Shown here: one piece after another, positions 21,201-60,746 of the stretch
Layout: every line of letters begins with the position of its first letter
Numbering within the stretch: the first letter of the stretch is position 1
Virus record (IMG/VR): IMGVR_UViG_3300025389_001172
Location: 77,322 to 141,321 of that record
Reading direction: 5' to 3' (one strand)
Source of the DNA: a virus
Taxonomy: Duplodnaviria > Caudoviricetes
DNA length: 64,000 nt
Position numbers and translations under genes: made by a program
The notes under the pieces: model-generated
Databases searched by the model: none
The model's input: only the letters and a program-made list of their open reading frames with translations
What the model was told of the DNA's origin: nothing

Positions 21201-21640
21201 AGATTAAAATATTGTTTAATCACATCTATCAGAATAGACAGATGACCTACTCTATCATATCCGATTAGAGCTTCACTATTTGTATTTTCTTCTTGGATAG
21301 ATCCCACATTGGCTCTAAATGGAATACGATTTTTCTTATATAGATTGTTAATGAGTATCCGTACGCTGTCGTCTTGATCAGAATCAATAGTAGCAGATTT
21401 ATCAAAAACAAAAAGATCATTGGCAATAAAATCAGTTGACATAGCAGACTTCATTCCCCCGTATCTACGTTCAAACGCTTCGGCTGGAGTTAACCCTGCA
21501 TAACTTTCAGCAGTGGCTTTTCCGAGTTTATCTCGGGCCACATATAAGATACCTTGATCTTTTGTAAGGCATCCATTATTATGATTATTAGAAAGCCAGT
21601 GTACTTTGGCCTGGGAACCATCTACTATAACACTCATCAA
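18206..21640 (-). CDS. SF2 helicase-Eco57I-type methyltransferase fusion (Type IIG/ISP-like RM enzyme)
   Basis: TSRGKT, IRDERH, LTATP, GTDIP, QLLGRMIR helicase motifs; FDVIIGNPPYQ, FAFIHP MTase motifs; AT-rich. Confidence 0.75.
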   Translation of the reverse strand: MMSVIVDGSQAKVHWLSNNHNNGCLTKDQGILYVARDKLGKATAESYAGLTPAEAFERRYGGMKSAMSTDFIANDLFVFDKSATIDSDQDDSVRILINNLYKKNRIPFRANVGSIQEENTNSEALIGYDRVGHLSILIDVIKQYFNLKESFDTKDPIIWRFKQEEDIEEIYERLIQHRLCLYAAYTSRGKTKISIEVAFRLCQRGGIVLVTTPITDTKKSFEENINDFHFGASRNLKVTYMDSIEFAKHSVTDLRQLADNDELIFVVLTVQDLRYGEDANSTVDADTKELRAKYHALSGNVNLWIRDERHAQYGGEVTSQRLANMTAEYELDLTATPYNVLDKYNWEQIVSRTLLWGLKYKEYTKLPTIRIDAVSTPLSNVSSKIAAMYSEEEGFDPRKLFVRNNDKFVLRAELLDIRDKMYHDTSSKKKNPLSIVNDKELSDVATTCGFWVLPEGQDGDGAADYIPDLAALLNTNSKTYFTDSYTLEKECPKTTTIGKYIESLVKQHGRVVILTCGKFLTGTDIPALGHIVLMAKMNNIANFEQLLGRMIREYPGKDEVKMYCFAPAMEIGLTMGRMAKMNAIALNGGTEYEMLECIPLTEYTTGGPLKINPDSILAEVQEFLKNRSKDRLPSASLETRLVAMDLSAWEDLDTKKFKKSAPKAGVTKDNGSKVKTKLGDNPKTGKPYTKEELNTITQIANAIQTVMVEAKWIAYSIVNYDYSVVLNNPVLAKMFPEEIDVVIDTIENDAVIKDMVVKNLNDKQLAYKGLAPIEVYDDIFLNNDYKRDIGLVYVPFQLAKQLVDNLPKNKYNKEDVTILVPNALNGTIPLMLRERFPLARIVCGEQFEYFRSHLERLGFETFKWEEINMEFDVIIGNPPYQKPKSDSRMGSRGASELWAEFVNKGLSLLKDNGHFAFIHPNAWRKPEDRNDFWKLLTQDNQMEKLVMSSGKGDQDWFGIGVRVDYYILQKKAKYKNTIVVDHEGVTHDLDLVNFDWLPNYAIDEISQLLGKGTSVLYNTFYHTQKKHSDVQTKDYKYQVVHTINKSGLGIKYFDKSQENDTTHFGVAKVLLNQNELQYPYNDFKGEYGMSQLTFGIPISSEEEGEEIIEFLNSDKGKRLIASTKWNTYYTDYGMFKSFKKNWYK

Positions 21641-54500: not shown

Positions 54501-56278
54501 GCTGTTAGGAACTCTAGTGCATCATCTCCCCAGCAGAATGTGTCGTGCATCCAAAATACTTTCAACTTGGCATGCTTACGGATGTATTCGAAATCTCTAT
54601 AGTTAAACTTGCGATTAGTAGTCTGGGGGTAATCGTACCAGTTTTTAGTTATGAAAGGAGTCACACAGCGACTGCTGATGACCACATCGAAACGTTCTGT
54701 ATTGGCGGCTATGTCTGACAATGGTCTATAGATGACATCATCGTAGACTCCGGGACGGTTTCCATCCTCGTCACAGCCGTTGAACACAGTGACATCGAAG
54801 CCCATCTGCTGTAGCTGTTTGCTGACCAATATCACTGCGCTTTCGCTACCACCCATGCCCTTCTTAGCCAGTGTGCTTCCATCATAGGCCATGCCTACGA
54901 TGTCAATGAAGGCCAGCTTGACACGAGGATTAGGCAGACTGGTTAGGCTGTCTGGCTTGACACGATCGACTATTTCTTCTCTGTTGATGTATCTGCGACC
55001 GAAGACCTTATGCACACGATAGTTTATCCAATCAACACGTGCCTGTTCATGATCTGTCAAGGTCATACCGAATCGGCTGAAGAAATGCTGTTTCCACTGT
55101 AGGGCCACTGTATCCCAAGTACTAACATCTTTGGCAGCATTACAGGCATACTGTTTCTGTTGATGCAGGTAGGGATTGTTTTTGATCTGTAGAACCATCT
55201 GGGCATAGGCCTCTGCTTGACGATCTGCATCAATCCAGGGAAATAGGCCATTGGGCTCTATAGCGTAGTCTATGAAATAGCTGGCAGTGTCAGTGGCTGA
55301 CTCTTCCATAGCACCGAATCGTGTGCCTATTACGGGAGTATTATAGTTGATGCTTTCTATTGAACTGATGCCCGATGTCTCTGGGTAGGCGCCTGGATAT
55401 AGGAAAGCCGTGGCCTTGGCCATGATCTCAGCTATTTGGGGTTGCGGTATGATGCCTGTGAACTCTATAGAGGGATCACGTTCTGTGAGTTTCTGCAGTT
55501 CTACGACCTGTTGATTAGCAGGACTCAGTCCAGACTCGTCTCGGAAGCGATAGTAGCCTCCTATGATCTTCAGCTTGGCCTTAGGCTGTGCGGCCTTGAT
55601 CTTGGGCCATATCTTACGGACCAGTGGTTCCATGCCCTTGGTCACTGAAGCATTATAGACAAATAGGTCTGGATCTTTGGCCTTGATATCGACCCAATCT
55701 ATATATCTGTTGATGGCGTTGCGAGTGTGGAATATGCAATTCTTTATAACTTCGAAGTTACGTCGAGGACCGTGTGCGAATGTATTAGCCACATAGCTGA
55801 TATGCCAGTCACTGATCAGGAATACTTCATCTATATAGTGATTGATCAGCAGAGGTTCCATGAGATGATCACCCCAGATGAAGGTGTCCTGCATCCACAG
55901 GATCTTTAACTGTCCGGGACGCTGTAGCTGCCGGAACAGTTCTGGATCGAAATCTCTAGGAGGTGGTTGCTTGACCTGATCGTATAGGTGTATAGGAGTA
56001 AACGGAATCACAGTGCGCTGACTGATCACTATGTTGAACTGATAGTCTCTATCTGCTAGTGCTGTAACAGGATAGTATACTACCCCATCATAGGTTCCGG
56101 GACTGGTTTCGTTAGTGAGGCAGTCATTGAAAACTGACACTTCAAATCCCAGTTTAACCAGTTCTCGGGCTATGGATATGATACTGCTTTCACTGCCTCC
56201 GATGCCTTTTTTACTCAGTGTGGTGCCATCATAGTTTAAGCCAATGATGTCTACTATGGCTATTTTTAGTTTTGTCAT
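51518..56278 (-). CDS. multi-domain glycosyltransferase (2x GT4, GT2, GT-A) with C-terminal FkbM methyltransferase
   Basis: Two GGSES...YP..ET.GIS.LES modules; IDDAS, LDGDD; VDSD..GFGC..SED; YDIGA, IKMDVQGAE. Confidence 0.88.
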   Translation of the reverse strand: MTKLKIAIVDIIGLNYDGTTLSKKGIGGSESSIISIARELVKLGFEVSVFNDCLTNETSPGTYDGVVYYPVTALADRDYQFNIVISQRTVIPFTPIHLYDQVKQPPPRDFDPELFRQLQRPGQLKILWMQDTFIWGDHLMEPLLINHYIDEVFLISDWHISYVANTFAHGPRRNFEVIKNCIFHTRNAINRYIDWVDIKAKDPDLFVYNASVTKGMEPLVRKIWPKIKAAQPKAKLKIIGGYYRFRDESGLSPANQQVVELQKLTERDPSIEFTGIIPQPQIAEIMAKATAFLYPGAYPETSGISSIESINYNTPVIGTRFGAMEESATDTASYFIDYAIEPNGLFPWIDADRQAEAYAQMVLQIKNNPYLHQQKQYACNAAKDVSTWDTVALQWKQHFFSRFGMTLTDHEQARVDWINYRVHKVFGRRYINREEIVDRVKPDSLTSLPNPRVKLAFIDIVGMAYDGSTLAKKGMGGSESAVILVSKQLQQMGFDVTVFNGCDEDGNRPGVYDDVIYRPLSDIAANTERFDVVISSRCVTPFITKNWYDYPQTTNRKFNYRDFEYIRKHAKLKVFWMHDTFCWGDDALEFLTAGGAIDEIWTLSDFHAMYVMTCSHPQFRSFEVLRRKMWVTRNGMVKYFDSVDLDSKDPNKFIFNANMSKGLDPLLNRIWPKIKTRLPDARLTVIGGFYKLGSAFAHDNEKEEFDKIASASYGDPTITFTGIIPQSEVAEHCASASYFIYPAALPETYGISTLESLYANTPLITCRFGAIEETATDLSYMIDYAAVPNGLFPNIDPEKQADQIVELAVAAYNDPQGHRQRMERLDEIKDLVGWEVTALEWKQHIYNKLDLYLSREESQQVAYTKNKYHRVFNRRNSSAEEWLAPKQGPEKKIVVISPFYRAEQFIARCIASVAAQDYDNYEHILIDDASDDDSYTVARRMIEDLPENIRNKFRVIRNTENQGAGYNYVTTLRKQNPDDIIMMLDGDDSLVNRPDVFDYYNHLHDDYDFTYGSCWSMVDSIPLIAQPYPPEVRENKSYKNYRFNWNIPYTHLRTLKAKFLMFVQDKDFQDAEGNWFKAGNDLAMFYAGIINADPDRVLAVPDIVYNYNDASPYNDYKINREEQDRAIAAVVPTGLSPSDNPQPRRSQPRAKKRILIAIPTNRNIEADTFKSIYDLTVPEGYETHFQYFWGYQVEQVRNLIAHWTIRNGFDYLFAVDSDISFPPDTLERLLSHDRDMVCGVYIQRISGTHTIEVMRSNAQGGVSHVDWAEIKGKGLVPVDGCGFGCVLIKKEVFAGIPYPHFVYKSAIDHADTISEDVFFCMRAREHGFTIWCDTDVICDHTGSYTFRVDRDMPAKSQEPPEQRRLRELGSWDLLPLKHVEYLQRMRDEMGVKPKVVYDIGACVLHWTNKAKVIWPDAEFCVCEAMDATEFLYQEAGLKYNLGLLSDEDGKVIEFYENTEHPGGNSYYRENEEFSPAAEHLFSEAHKVVKQSITLDTVVKLKGFPPADLIKMDVQGAEMDILKGAEESLKSCRDLILELQKIKYNTGAPLDEEVIAYVESLGFRLVTARFSVSNDSAPDGDYHFTRI

Positions 56279-56279
56279 A

Positions 56280-56810
56280 TTATTCTAGGTATAATCTCAA
56301 TAGGCTAGTCCCGCGTACTTCTGATCGAGGATATATTTTGCGTATCCAATTATAGTACACGTGCCTGTCTGGCGAGTAATCGTGGATCAGCACAGGTGCA
56401 TGTCTGTTCTTGGCCAGGCCCAACAGCATCAGTGCGATAGTACAGCGTGCTATACCGTCGATGAAATACAGATCGCCTTCTAAGACAAATTCTCCGGGGA
56501 ATATGTAATCATCGAGTCCTATAGGATTTTCTTCTTCTGGTCTACCATATCCGTGATCATAGCAGTTGGGTTTGACTGGCCTATACATATAGTTACAAAG
56601 GATATCGTTATCTGCTAGTAGTTGATTTATCTTGTTAAACCATTCTAGGTTGTGTTCTATAGATGTATAGGTTTTCCCATCAGATAGATCTTTACCAAAT
56701 GTTATTGTACTCCCTCCACTACCCCATTCTATTATCTTAGAGTTGGGTGCTAGTCCGCCTATCAGATCAGTCATGATGGCGATTTCATCAGGGTGCATTA
56801 CTGGAATCAT
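56280..56810 (-). CDS. methyltransferase-like protein
   Basis: IEWGSGGST, SIEH, FIDG..R, IHD. Confidence 0.75.
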   Translation of the reverse strand: MIPVMHPDEIAIMTDLIGGLAPNSKIIEWGSGGSTITFGKDLSDGKTYTSIEHNLEWFNKINQLLADNDILCNYMYRPVKPNCYDHGYGRPEEENPIGLDDYIFPGEFVLEGDLYFIDGIARCTIALMLLGLAKNRHAPVLIHDYSPDRHVYYNWIRKIYPRSEVRGTSLLRLYLE

Positions 56811-56892
56811 TGTGAACCTTTTGTGTTTGTTTATTTAAGCGTGCTCTAGTATAGCATAAAAGAAAACTGACTGTCAATGCAGTCAGCTTTGT

Positions 56893-57066
56893 CTAGTGCG
56901 GTGCGTAGGGATTTACGGGTCGATCTGTATCATCATCTTCAGGATATACCGGATAAGGACGAGTCCATACTATACCTGTCCAGGTGTAGGGTAGTTGGCC
57001 CTCTACCATATAGGTATCTCCTACTTTGGGATCCTTTGGCAAATCGTTGAGGCTATCTACTTTCAT
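56893..57066 (-). CDS. small hypothetical protein
   Basis: MKVDSLNDLPKDPKVGDTY..YTWTG..W. Confidence 0.55.
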   Translation of the reverse strand: MKVDSLNDLPKDPKVGDTYMVEGQLPYTWTGIVWTRPYPVYPEDDDTDRPVNPYAPH

Positions 57067-57084
57067 ATATGAGTATTTAATCGA

Positions 57085-57159
57085 TAAATAAGATGTAGTT
57101 CGCGATACTGGAATATCCAACTACTCTAACGCTATACGGAGCATCAGCAATGATATTTA
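57085..57159. repeat. homing-endonuclease leader element, copy 1
   Basis: TAAATA..GTAGTTCGCGAT-N8-ATCCAACTACTCTAACGCT..GGAGCA.TCAGC-N5-TATTTA; inverted copy at 59067-59144. Confidence 0.85.
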
Positions 57160-57764
57160 ATAGAAAATGTCCGCCAATAGGATTTTATGTATACGCATAT
57201 TTGCGAACCTCTGACCTAACCCCATATTACATAGGTAAGGGAAAGGGTATTAGAGCAATAGAAAGACACAGGGTTACTATTCCTACCGATTCTACCAAAA
57301 TACTTATTCTCGAACAAAATTTAACAGAAATAGGGGCATTCGCTATTGAGCGCAGATTAATTCAATGGTGGGGTAGAAAAGATATAGGTACTGGAATACT
57401 GCTCAACGAAACTAGCGGAGGGGAGGGAGCCTCTGGAAGAGTAGGAAAAAAAGGACATGAATCTCCATTATATGGCAGAAAAAGACCCGAACACTCATTG
57501 TTATTAACTGGCAAAAAACGCCCAGAACATTCAGAAATGATGAAAGGAAAATTTGTTGGAGAGAATAATCCTAGATACGGCAAGCCAGGAACTTTCAAAA
57601 ATAAACAACATACAGAAGAAGCTCTTGCTAAAATGAGAAGACCAACAGGGCCTCATAAGAAAAAAAGAGAGCTATTAGTTTGTCCGCATTGTAAAAAAGC
57701 CAGCGACGCAAGTAATGCGAAACGCTGGCACTTTGACAACTGTAAGTCTAAAATAAATTATTGA
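57150..57764 (+). mobile_element. free-standing GIY-YIG homing endonuclease with NUMOD3-like repeats
   Basis: [26 protein letters not shown]; KRPEHS repeats; CPHC, WHFDNCK. Confidence 0.88.
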
Positions 57765-58477
57765 CCTAGATTAAATCTCATTCCAGTTGCTTTTTCAATC
57801 TCAGTCATAGTGGTCTGGTAGTTCGCCCAACTTGTTGCTGGAGTAATTGGCTCATTTGGTAACAAATATGCTTGTACTTTTTTGCTATTTTTCTCAATGA
57901 TAATTTTATATAAGCGAGTTGGGATGCCTAGACCGTTACCAGTTACTGGATGTCCTGGATCAAAAATACCGCCTGATATAATATAGAAATCTGTGCCCGG
58001 CGCCATAGCCCATTGACGCTCAGCAGTTTCTAGTAAACGCCAGCCGCCTCTATTGTTGTTGGCATTTTGTGCTACCATATTGCTCAAGTTGAAACTTTCA
58101 CTCATGATTTGATCATTTTGTGTATTGTTACCTGCTGGAGCCATGTGTCCACGATCGTGTGTTTTACCTACAGTGGCATAGTCAGCTAGGCTAGCTGAAC
58201 ACTGTGGTGCCACACTGGCGTCTGGGTGGAAGTTGTCTTTGCGTTTGGCTGGGCCAGTCATCGCGGCTGGAGTTAGGTGCTCGAATACTGCTACAGGAGC
58301 CTTCACTGAACAGCGATGGATCACAGCATAGTTCATATGGCAGATCTCTTGATCTCCGGGCTGTGGTTGATACTGTGGTGTGCCGTTGGCTGTGAACTGT
58401 GGACACATTTTATTAATTTGTGCTTGGGCAAATACTGGTAATAAACCAAATACTGCTACTAATAGTAATTTTTTCAT
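57758..58477 (-). CDS. secreted DNA/RNA non-specific endonuclease (NucA/EndoG family)
   Basis: Signal peptide, [30 protein letters not shown]. Confidence 0.92.
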
Positions 58478-58498
58478 TTTGATTCCTTTCTTGACTGT

Positions 58499-59077
58499 TT
58501 ATTTAGCTATTAACTGCTTACATTTATTACCATGGTATTTTTTATGCATACCTATTCCTGTTACAATCTTACATCCAATACAACAAACTTTTAATTGCGA
58601 CGGGTGTGTTCCATTTTCTAATTGCTTGCGTGTAATGTTTGGCCCAAGAAAAGGATTAGTTCCGTCCTCTACTGTTTTAACATTTCTGCGACGAGTTATA
58701 TCACTGCCTAAAAAATGATGTGTTCCTGCTTTTACTCTATCTTTTTGTAGGCTCGATCCATCTGATCTTGTCATAAACGGATGTATACCTTGTTCAACTC
58801 TTTTATAATTTAACTGGCTACAAAGTTTTGACATTTCGTTAGCAGGAATTTTCATACGGCGAGTTAATGCTAAACAAGCCTCCCAATCTTCTTGAGCATA
58901 ATGAATATTATAATGCTCGTTGATTGTTACGAGAGTTAAATTTGTTGGATCGTTATTTGAATGATTACCATCAATATGATGGACTTCCATTCGACGGCCG
59001 GTTGAATCGGTTCCTATAGGGCCGTAGTGATTTTCGTAGATTTTGCGATACTTAGGTGTGCTACAGTAAATACACAT
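58499..59077 (-). mobile_element. free-standing HNH homing endonuclease
   Basis: EVHHIDGNHSNNDPTNL..EH..IH; GTHHF/GTNPF/GTHP repeats. Confidence 0.88.
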
Positions 59078-59144
59078 GCTGATTGCTCCTTCAAAGCGTT
59101 AGAGTAGTTGGATGTTGACGCATCGCGAACTACACCTTTATTTA
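59067..59144. repeat. homing-endonuclease leader element, copy 2 (inverted)
   Basis: Same element as 57085-57159 with a compensatory stem change. Confidence 0.85.
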
Positions 59145-59146
59145 TT

Positions 59147-60073
59147 TTAATATCCGCCAGTCAGCGGACTGCGTTTCCAAGTGTTAGTTGCTGTGCAAAC
59201 ATAGATATAGTCAGCATCCCAACAAATTTGTCCTGGTGTCCCAGTTGCGGTTGATGCTTTAGTAGTTTGAGGTGCTTTTAATATGCCACTCTGTGATCCT
59301 ACATAGCCTGTTTGATCCTGCCATTGTAAAAATGTTGGAGGATCCCCTGCAACTAATACCTGTCCAACAGTAGGAGCTGTCTCAGGGAATACATAATTAG
59401 GGAATTTAACAGAACCGTCGGCATTAAAAGCAACTTCATAAGTGCCGGTTATAATGAATACAAGACTATTGTCGGTATCAAAATAAATGTTGCCTTGCCC
59501 ATTCTGCGATTGAATACTACCAGCCTGACCAACGTTAGGTATAACGATAGATCCGGTTGTAACAAAGCCGGCGGCAGAGACATTGCCCGGAACAGAAAGA
59601 TTGCCATAATTATCTACAGTGACACTAGGTCCACCGTTGACCAATTGAGTTGCATCTGCTGGACTGTATGTAAATATACCTGTGGAGTTATTGTAGATCA
59701 GAGCACCGCCAACGACAGATGTACTTGTCGTAACCACACTCAACGAACTTAATCTAATACCAGTGCTGGAGGATATGGGATATGGACTAGCATCAACCCA
59801 GGTATTTTCATAATAGATATAGAGTTTACCATCATTTGTGTCCCACCATAACTCACCTTCGTGCGGCATAGAAGGAGGTGTAGGACTGGAAAAAGTTAGA
59901 CTAGCTCCACTGAGAGGAAGACCACCCGGAGTCGCACCGTCTGAATACTTCAACACAGGTGCCAGCCCAGTAGCTGTAGTCTGGGTATAGAATAAATGCC
60001 CTGCTTGACCTACGTAGGTATCTGCATTGACATTTAGTGCTCTGCTGGAAAAGATCTTCTGTGTTATGGACAC
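59147..60073 (-). CDS. tail fibre/virion structural protein
   Basis: SDGATPGG, GELWWDT..LYIYY..W, GQICWDADYIYVC..W. Confidence 0.7.
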   Translation of the reverse strand: MSITQKIFSSRALNVNADTYVGQAGHLFYTQTTATGLAPVLKYSDGATPGGLPLSGASLTFSSPTPPSMPHEGELWWDTNDGKLYIYYENTWVDASPYPISSSTGIRLSSLSVVTTSTSVVGGALIYNNSTGIFTYSPADATQLVNGGPSVTVDNYGNLSVPGNVSAAGFVTTGSIVIPNVGQAGSIQSQNGQGNIYFDTDNSLVFIITGTYEVAFNADGSVKFPNYVFPETAPTVGQVLVAGDPPTFLQWQDQTGYVGSQSGILKAPQTTKASTATGTPGQICWDADYIYVCTATNTWKRSPLTGGY

Positions 60074-60083
60074 TTGAGTATCC

Positions 60084-60431
60084 TTAAACGTCTAGTGGTT
60101 CGTCACTACCGGCTTCATCTACTGCCACTGGATTGATACCAGCCATGTGTTTGATACGAGCCAGTTCATCTTCATTGTCACTGCCCTGTCCTGTAAGATC
60201 TTCGTCTGGACCATGCTGATCATAGATACTGTCTACATTAACTGCCTTCTTCAACAGTTCTATCTTGGCCTGTAGTGGCGGTACGAAAGTACCTGATTCT
60301 GTATGATCCACGTTGGGAACTTCTACTGCTGTCATCGTGGCTGCGGTCTGTTGACCCATTTCCTGGCCTTGACCGCCTTCAATGCCTGCTAGCAGTTCTG
60401 CTAGTCCGTGTAAAATTTCTGATGCTTTCAT
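60084..60431 (-). CDS. acidic putative head protein
   Basis: MKASEIL leader, PPLQAKIELLKKA, LARIKHMAG. Confidence 0.55.
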   Translation of the reverse strand: MKASEILHGLAELLAGIEGGQGQEMGQQTAATMTAVEVPNVDHTESGTFVPPLQAKIELLKKAVNVDSIYDQHGPDEDLTGQGSDNEDELARIKHMAGINPVAVDEAGSDEPLDV

Positions 60432-60440
60432 AATCTGTCA

Positions 60441-60746
60441 TTAAGCCACTGGCGTTATAGTTACTAAACCACCACTAGCTGCCTGTAGTATTTTTACTGA
60501 ATTGCTGGAATCTAGTTTGAAGTGTTCTGCTGTGTTGGCTGGTAGCAACATGGTAGCATCTGTAGTAGAGTTCAGAGCGATGAATATGTTCTGTGTAGAG
60601 GCTATACGCACTTTCAGTGCTGGAAGGTGTGCACCGTGATGGTCCTGATAGTTGCCCACGATTGAATCGAATGTTACCACTGTTACAGTCTGAGATGAAC
60701 TGCTGGCTGTTACTACTCTGGTTGGTCCTACGACTTTGGTTAGCAT
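60441..60746 (-). CDS. small beta-rich structural protein
   Basis: ORF with TAAATA upstream. Confidence 0.6.
   Translation of the reverse strand: MLTKVVGPTRVVTASSSSQTVTVVTFDSIVGNYQDHHGAHLPALKVRIASTQNIFIALNSTTDATMLLPANTAEHFKLDSSNSVKILQAASGGLVTITPVA

Follow-up and report, generated by a model that had tools for sequence, protein, structure and literature searches.

In phages, homing endonucleases are the classic example of selfish genes, and what holds them in check has to date been sought in promoter choice, in hairpins that mask the ribosome-binding site (RBS) and in autorepression. The element described here is a putative control cassette of about 75 nt that precedes two unrelated homing endonuclease genes in a 64-kb stretch of DNA (the window), the final part of the 141-kb IMG/VR virus record IMGVR_UViG_3300025389_001172, which is estimated to be 39% complete. 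The cassette comprises two hairpins, A and B, framed by two facing TAAATA hexamers, an outer one upstream of hairpin A and an inner one within the 5' end of the nuclease gene.

In T4 the late promoter lies inside the RBS-masking hairpin, so that read-through RNAs alone are masked (PMC2988022). The T-even genes for I-TevI, for I-TevII and for I-TevIII, segB, and mobE of Aeh1 resemble the cassette in having a late promoter just upstream and a structure in the leader RNA (PMC2988022). A further link to the T-even phages is the HNH protein encoded in the window, which is a homologue of I-TevIII. The outer TAAATA is found 3-5 nt ahead of hairpin A in 105 of the 109 unique copies collected, but the T4 arrangement of a promoter within a masking hairpin does not apply. 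The Shine-Dalgarno sequence (SD) is in a loop, the promoter is outside, and the fold is selected on the other strand. The T4 model of read-through and RBS masking was tried and rejected on the basis of folding: pairing of the outer TAAATA with the inner TATTTA, on the pattern of T4 gene e and I-TevI, has a mean probability of 0.24. The SD and the AUG are unpaired with probabilities of 0.53 and 0.44 in the read-through RNA versus 0.56 and 0.44 in the late RNA. The initial annotation of the window had set the element apart from the RBS mask of I-TevI, and this distinction holds, since the promoter stands outside both hairpins and accessibility is equal in both RNAs.

The RNA-IN/RNA-OUT system of IS10 offers a different comparison. 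Its promoter pOUT, which converges with pIN, lies inside the transposase gene, a stable stem-loop antisense RNA of 69 nt blocks ribosome binding, and inhibition in trans grows with copy number (PMC5006887). The cassette is similar in belonging to a selfish element and in its layout, with two convergent promoter-like hexamers, of which the outward one is within the 5' end of the enzyme gene, and a predicted short folded RNA directed against the translation initiation region, here with a predicted length of about 55-70 nt and in up to nine copies per genome. The antisense-strand fold covaries, is specific to that strand and by position covers the SD and the sequence as far as 1 nt ahead of the start codon. 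The two systems have no sequence relationship, however, and the cassette carries a homing endonuclease where IS10 has a transposase. The putative promoters of the cassette are also of the T4 late type, and its predicted two-hairpin RNA would span the whole 5' untranslated region (UTR).

Experiments have on one occasion revealed, in a T4-like phage, an RNA that runs opposite a homing endonuclease gene, namely CfrI of cyanophage S-PM2 (PMC2984593). CfrI differs in being about 225 nt long, in connecting the endonuclease gene to psbA and in belonging to a single locus and not to a portable cassette; its function is unknown (PMC2984593). A blastn comparison of two leaders with 50,697 phage records gave no similarity to the S-PM2/CfrI locus beyond chance level. 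Dassa et al. (2009) described conserved hairpins with a T4-like late promoter before metagenomic, free-standing GIY-YIG and Vsr-like homing endonuclease genes in 'fractured genes' (PMC2677866). Their hairpins are formed by two conserved, mutually complementary motifs from aquatic metagenomes, and one locus had lost the endonuclease gene (PMC2677866). Compared by description only, those hairpins differ from the cassette in that they include the promoter and were read as sense-strand translational elements, with no antisense reading (PMC2677866). The PeSL cassettes of T4-like phages are also small mobile modules of a promoter and a stem-loop, repeated per genome and tied to modular gene shuffling (PMC4122927). 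They carry early promoters and lie beside assorted ORFan genes in hyperplastic regions (PMC4122927), whereas the present cassette has two TAAATA hexamers of late-promoter type and its classifiable downstream open reading frames (ORFs) all encode homing endonucleases. Neither the early sigma-70-type promoter nor the diverse non-endonuclease ORFs that would mark a PeSL are found in it.

The two copies in the window precede a SegE-like GIY-YIG gene (copy 1) and an I-TevIII-like HNH gene on the opposite strand (copy 2; Table 1). Both lie where the initial annotation had placed them, to the nucleotide, and their leaders align with an identical core. A 39-nt core pattern has two matches in the window and none in 100 shuffles. 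A third, partial match at window position 21618 has three mismatches, which is at chance level, and was rejected. The whole 141-kb record was searched and contains no copies beyond the two. The shared leader is not the product of a local duplication; it is found in at least 119 IMG/VR contigs.

These contigs come from an exact-match scan of IMG/VR for the arms of hairpin A, which gave at least 119 stretches with 122 matches and 94 unique copies. A covariance model then recovered copies with a diverged hairpin A, and the pair counts of hairpin A and the presence of the hexamers refer to 109 unique rows. The family has a common layout: TAAATA preceded by A, C or G, then hairpin A after 3-5 nt, a single base, hairpin B holding GGAG inside or beside its loop, CAGC, 0-3 nt, the start codon, 0-3 nt and TATTTA. 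The portable module with interchangeable nuclease cargo that had been proposed from two copies is thus now represented by more than 100, standing before at least eight unrelated nuclease clusters, and scans for further nuclease-linked copies, as had been suggested, place it ahead of well over a hundred such genes in other uncultured phages. One complete 329-kb genome with terminal repeats contains nine copies. Two of the cassettes in this phage, G001:C1:69109-69199(-) and 69486-69576(+) (L166, L162), are divergent and lie about 290 bp apart with their outward promoters facing.

The fold of the copies is strand-specific. The initial annotation held that full pairing of hairpin B is confined to the antisense strand, and in 65 of 66 unique variants it is indeed more stable there, with a mean minimum free energy (MFE) of -7.0 kcal/mol versus -2.7 kcal/mol on the sense strand. 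In these variants the antisense hairpin B is an 8-9-bp stem without interruption. Its pairs comprise 430 Watson-Crick, 114 G.U and no A.C, and the stem is broken only by six 1x1 mismatches, which include neither A.C nor C.A. The 114 G.U cells are A.C mismatches on the sense strand. In the sense alignment helix 3 is just 73% paired and one position is unpaired in 82 of 83 sequences. Two of the eight continuous antisense pairs of copy 1 are G.U; copy 2 forms the same helix with a bulged U. The single compensatory change reported for hairpin A grows, in the 109 rows, to covariation at 10 of the 11 core pairs. The lower stem varies as GTAGTT/AACTAC, GTGAGT/ACTCAC, GTCGAT/ATCGAC, GTGGTC/GACCAC and GCTAGT/ACTAGC, and the top stem as GATA/TATC, GGGA/TCCC, GAGG/CCTC and GGAA/TTCC. 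Among the non-Watson-Crick cells of the hairpin A core, 11 read A.C in the sense direction and hence G.U in the antisense one, a further cell is a different mismatch, and a sense G.U does not occur. For 40 diverse copies RNAalifold gives -20.71 kcal/mol on the antisense strand, with 19 pairs of which 15 show double compensatory changes, versus -11.92 kcal/mol on the sense strand, with 14 pairs and hairpin B reduced to 3 bp. In the window the MFEs are -17.4 antisense versus -9.3 sense for copy 1 and -15.0 versus -11.9 kcal/mol for copy 2. Hairpin A of copy 1 can fold on either strand, and the selection visible in it points to the antisense (-) strand. The covariation and the strand-specific fold are seen in the copies, as are the two-promoter layout and its conservation. 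Together, these comparisons indicate that the fold belongs to the antisense strand.

The strand asymmetry bears on a reading of the element as a 5' UTR of the sense strand only, in which hairpin A would stabilise the late mRNA while hairpin B and the AU-rich TATTTA would tune translation initiation, much as the RBS hairpins of T4 homing endonuclease genes do. Hairpin A does fold on the sense strand too, from the predicted sense +1, a late promoter with an RBS hairpin is known for homing endonuclease genes of the T4 family (PMC2988022), and conserved hairpins have been reported ahead of metagenomic homing endonuclease genes (PMC2677866). However, every non-Watson-Crick pair read in the sense direction is an A.C, with no G.U among them, the sense hairpin B has only 3 bp and the low mean stability given above, the promoter is outside the hairpins, and the accessibility of the SD and the AUG does not change between read-through and late RNA. 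This reading is disfavoured already by the asymmetry between the strands and is very unlikely. Even less credible is conservation at the DNA level only, as a homology patch for the swapping of cargo or as an operator bound by a C-terminal zinc-knuckle of the nuclease. It would fit the occurrence of one leader ahead of eight unrelated nuclease clusters and of a C-terminal CxxC...(R/K)(W/Y)H..C motif in 23 of 75 nucleases, and the autorepression of I-TevI via an operator is a precedent (PMC2988022), but operators and patches keep sequence and not compensatory pairing with G.U on one strand.

TAAATA hexamers facing each other are present on both sides of the cassette, as the initial annotation had it, but in copy 1 the spacer on the sense side measures 4 nt and not 5. 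In the family the spacer between the outer TAAATA and hairpin A is 5 nt (80 copies) or 3 nt (20 copies). The inner TATTTA is present in 96 of the 109 copies and is replaced by TACTTA in 8 more; a minor variant, TAAGTA, is seen at the outer position and likewise at the inner one. The inner TATTTA lies 5 nt (58 copies), 4 nt (20) or 6 nt (13) from hairpin B, and its offset from the start codon is 5, 3 or 4 nt (29, 24 and 16 copies), by which N termini such as M-x-I-Y, M-Y-L and M-I-F are encoded across it. In the window the distance from the inner hexamer to TCAGC is 5 nt in both copies, as noted before, and the codon phases differ (M-I-F versus M-C-I-Y). Because all three reading phases are used, the conservation of the inner hexamer is at the nucleotide level, and the proposal that it is conserved as DNA is borne out by its near-fixed distance. 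Its retention is independent of the orientation of the neighbour, with 18 of 22 copies when the upstream gene is co-oriented versus 46 of 57.

TAAATA is under-represented in this genome, with 88 copies versus about 147 expected; 46 of the 88 are within the 9% of the DNA that is intergenic and just 16 are antisense within genes. The N5 rule, by which the start of the antisense transcript had been placed, is followed in this genome at seven long ORFs with TAAATA-N5-ATG/GTG. These ORFs have no SD, and their starts in the window include 1835(-), 25432(-), 50737(-) and 50874(+). The seven gene starts suggest leaderless late mRNAs in this phage. Since such starts set the +1 at the sixth base, the outward RNA would begin at the G just before the stem of hairpin B'. 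Late sigma factors of the gp55 type are encoded by large cassette-carrying phages (phrog_12791, E 4e-84 and 4e-79). By these signs TAAATA has the behaviour of a late promoter in these phages.

The cassette is, on balance, probably a cis-antisense brake on homing endonuclease expression of the RNA-OUT kind. A mobile control cassette of about 75 nt with two convergent T4-type late promoters would move together with free-standing homing endonuclease genes. Transcription from the outer promoter would begin the nuclease mRNA where hairpin A has its foot, and the inner promoter, in codons 2-4 of the nuclease gene, would fire outward to give a transcript that begins at the foot of hairpin B'. The outward RNA would consist of a 5' hairpin B' with an anti-SD loop, hairpin A' and a U-rich tail, the tail being the complement of the outer promoter. 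There is a mean of 5.7 U in the first 10 nt after hairpin A'. The predicted RNA is complementary to the whole leader and the SD of the nuclease mRNA, the complementarity stopping 1 nt short of the start codon. It would block ribosome binding, trigger cleavage of the duplex, or both, and the outcome would be a low nuclease output, as with RNA-OUT and the IS10 transposase. We infer the firing of the inner hexamer, the site at which the RNA ends and the repression of the nuclease. The other possibility raised in the initial annotation, that the RNA partners with the nuclease, has nothing in its favour. If the antisense brake is real, a portable antisense-RNA gene shared by unrelated nuclease families would be an additional regulatory layer, parallel to the copy-number control of transposons, and would account for the exchange of one leader among different cargoes.

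Because hairpin A and the anti-SD loop are common to the copies, the cassette RNAs of one genome could act across on each other's mRNAs. A family-wide network of trans-acting antisense RNAs may be imagined, though it is rather unlikely, in which a shared pool of repressor caps the nuclease load and the cassette is a dual-purpose 'good citizen' module. The cap would tighten as the copy number rises, whatever the nuclease family, and the pool could also silence endonuclease genes of co-infecting phages. The outward promoter would permit backward insertion into host operons without polar damage. A dual-purpose module of this kind, if it exists, has not been described for homing endonucleases.

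Several points weigh against an antisense brake. The inner hexamer is taken for a promoter from its motif, spacing and conservation alone, and no gp55 match is found in this record, which is 39% complete. A simple terminator scan makes no call at hairpin A' and its tail, and the 3' end of the RNA is a predicted one. The shuffle z-scores of the single sequences are modest or weak (-1.6 and -1.1 on the antisense strand), for which reason the evidence for structure is the comparison of copies and not thermodynamics. The sequence conservation of hairpin A is owed in part to the exact-match pattern by which copies were collected. The outward transcript could, moreover, serve a flanking gene instead. 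The start of a host gene often lies 10-120 nt beyond hairpin A on the opposite strand, usually without a TAAATA of its own, and when the loci are grouped by insertion site into 50 clusters, 28 are antisense to both neighbours versus 6 that are co-oriented (binomial p = 2e-4).

The orientation bias was counted in the 67 loci of the L003-L121 set for which both flanks are available. Both neighbours are opposite to the nuclease strand in 40 of the 67 and both are co-oriented with it in 8. Copy 1 of the window is of the backward-inserted type and copy 2 is co-oriented with its neighbours. The strong bias may stem from the lack of an RBS mask, as a gene inserted backwards escapes expression by read-through, and it suggests a rule for how such genes spare the host phage.

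The same bias favours the main rival reading, in which the outward promoter and the structured leader serve the flanking gene of the host phage and the antisense effect on the nuclease is a by-product. The inner TAAATA would restart late transcription before the next gene, and hairpins B' and A' would be a 5' stabiliser or insulator. The bias by locus and by cluster agrees with this, as does the scarcity of TAAATA at nearby divergent ORF starts, and selection for the fold on the antisense strand would also be accounted for. Nevertheless, the inner hexamer is kept equally well when the upstream gene is co-oriented, of which copy 2 is a case, and the gene that flanks copy 1 has a TAAATA-N7-ATG start of its own. 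A U-rich tract directly after hairpin A' would hamper read-through, and two covarying hairpins with an anti-SD in the loop are more than a 5' stabiliser would call for. Service to the host gene as the chief role is unlikely; control of the nuclease and a role for the host gene are not mutually exclusive.

The antisense hairpins could also act as a terminator or processing site, similar to a PeSL, for host-strand read-through RNA that crosses the nuclease gene backwards, in which case the inner TATTTA would be conserved for another reason. Strand-specific hairpins followed by a U-rich tail, together with the insertion-orientation bias, are as this would have it, and the PeSL are a precedent for mobile promoter and stem-loop modules in T4-like phages (PMC4122927). 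It leaves unexplained, however, why a hexamer should keep a distance of 4-6 nt ahead of the helix while using three codon phases. The AU-rich stem has interruptions and draws no call in the terminator scan, and in the setting found most often, a stop ahead of the following host gene would come at a cost. Such a role is improbable.

The ORF behind the cassette encodes a homing endonuclease in every classifiable case. Pfam matches among 75 downstream proteins are HNH_3 (7), HNH (6), HNH_5 (6), SegE_GIY-YIG (4), GIY-YIG (4) and NUMOD3 (19), where the tallies of HNH and HNH_5 may overlap, and most of the 75 match PHROG families of homing or HNH endonucleases. On residues 9-110 the nucleases fall into eight clusters that are mutually unrelated (blastp E < 1e-4). 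The GIY-YIG protein of the window is SegE-like by its N terminus and by its cluster (an N-terminal cluster of 29), and its match to NUMOD3 is weak. The HNH protein matches phrog_12324, 'intron-like DNA endonuclease', and is 32-33% identical to I-TevIII of T-even phages. When 16 full-length homologues of this HNH protein were collected by protein alone, and hence independently of the leader, 14 had the leader directly upstream.

A zinc-knuckle-like motif, CxxC...(R/K)(W/Y)H(F/G)xNC(K/R), is found at the C terminus of nucleases of all three major families. In the window it is encoded at 57680-57764, in the form CxxC...RWHFxNC of the GIY-YIG protein, and at 58499-58585. The shared motif has no match in Pfam. 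It is a 3' module common to the cassettes and a candidate DNA- or RNA-binding domain or recombination patch. Decayed cassettes retain the outer promoter, hairpin A and, of hairpin B, the 5' arm, fused directly to the last 15 or so nuclease codons, which include the RWHFENC part; at L065 the cassette is followed by a truncated ORF instead. The decayed cassettes look like internal deletions of the endonuclease gene.

The cassette carriers are T4-like and jumbo uncultured phages, apparently of fresh water. Among 50,697 phage records in INPHARED, megablast of the 4.5-kb region gave no real match and blastn of two leaders gave only partial matches at chance level, so that no cultured phage there carries the leader. 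A scan of 185,579 prokaryote species genomes in GTDB gave a single match (L122; JBBAKF010000115.1, 4408-4501), on a 6-kb contig binned with a metagenome-assembled genome of Polynucleobacter, which is a weak hint of a freshwater betaproteobacterial host or else a binning artefact. A search with the Rfam 15 covariance models, run to E <= 1 over both strands of window 56000-60500, was negative, and no occurrence of the core 12- and 14-mer strings was found in the literature searched. With nothing similar in Rfam, the cassette is a candidate for a new RNA family. In the genomes of uncultured phages it further offers a practical means of locating free-standing homing endonuclease genes and the sites at which they have inserted.

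Table 1. Features of the two cassette copies in the window (window positions) and decayed cassettes of the family (positions within the loci named)
Feature	Position	Strand	Remarks
Copy 1, outer (inward, sense) late-promoter hexamer TAAATA	57085-57090	+	4 nt before hairpin A
Copy 1, hairpin A	57095-57124		GTAGTT-CGC-GATA/TATC-C-AACTAC; lower stem GTAGTT/AACTAC, CGC x C internal loop, top GATA/TATC
Copy 1, hairpin B	57126-57147	-	8-bp helix on antisense strand only; loop is complement of SD
Copy 1, SD GGAG	57138-57141	+	
Copy 1, start codon ATG	57150	+	
Copy 1, inner (outward, antisense) TAAATA	57154-57159	-	Read TATTTA on +; codons 2-4 of GIY-YIG gene; antisense transcript predicted to start from G at 57148 (-)
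Copy 1, predicted antisense RNA	57081-57148	-	Hairpin B', hairpin A', U-rich tail
SegE-like GIY-YIG homing endonuclease gene	57150-57764	+	204 aa; PHROG homing endonuclease families
Copy 2, outer (inward) late-promoter hexamer TAAATA	59139-59144	-	5 nt before hairpin A; begins 5 nt past stop codon (59147-59149) of upstream gene
Gene upstream of copy 2	59147-60073		
Copy 2, hairpin A	59104-59133		Top stem GATG/CATC; fold assigned to antisense (+) strand
Copy 2, hairpin B	59079-59102	+	Antisense helix with one bulged U
Copy 2, SD GGAG	59086-59089	-	
Copy 2, start codon ATG	59077	-	
Copy 2, inner (outward) TAAATA	59067-59072	+	Codons 2-4 of HNH gene; antisense transcript predicted to start from G at 59078 (+)
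Copy 2, predicted antisense RNA	59078-59150	+	
I-TevIII-like HNH homing endonuclease gene	58499-59077	-	192 aa; Pfam HNH_3 E 7.5e-11
Decayed cassette, L006	713-796	-	
Decayed cassette, L030			
Decayed cassette, L080	414-497	-	
Decayed cassette, L111			
Decayed cassette, L103	2780-2884	-	
Decayed cassette, L065			

The surroundings of the two copies contain further late-type hexamers. Beside copy 1 two of them stand back to back, TATTTA-ATCGA-TAAATA (window 57074-57090), one for the GIY-YIG gene and one for a divergent ORF of 57 aa (57066-56893), which has the TAAATA-N7-ATG start. A terminator-like, bidirectional hairpin is found past this ORF, at 56863-56890. The gene downstream of the HNH gene, at 57758-58477, encodes a non-specific nuclease of the secreted type (Pfam Endonuclease_NS, E 4e-39). 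A TAAATA(A) that overlaps the HNH stop codon (window 58499-58505, -) lies 22 nt ahead of the ATG at 58477, and the 3' end of the copy 2 cassette may be a source of a late promoter for this next gene.

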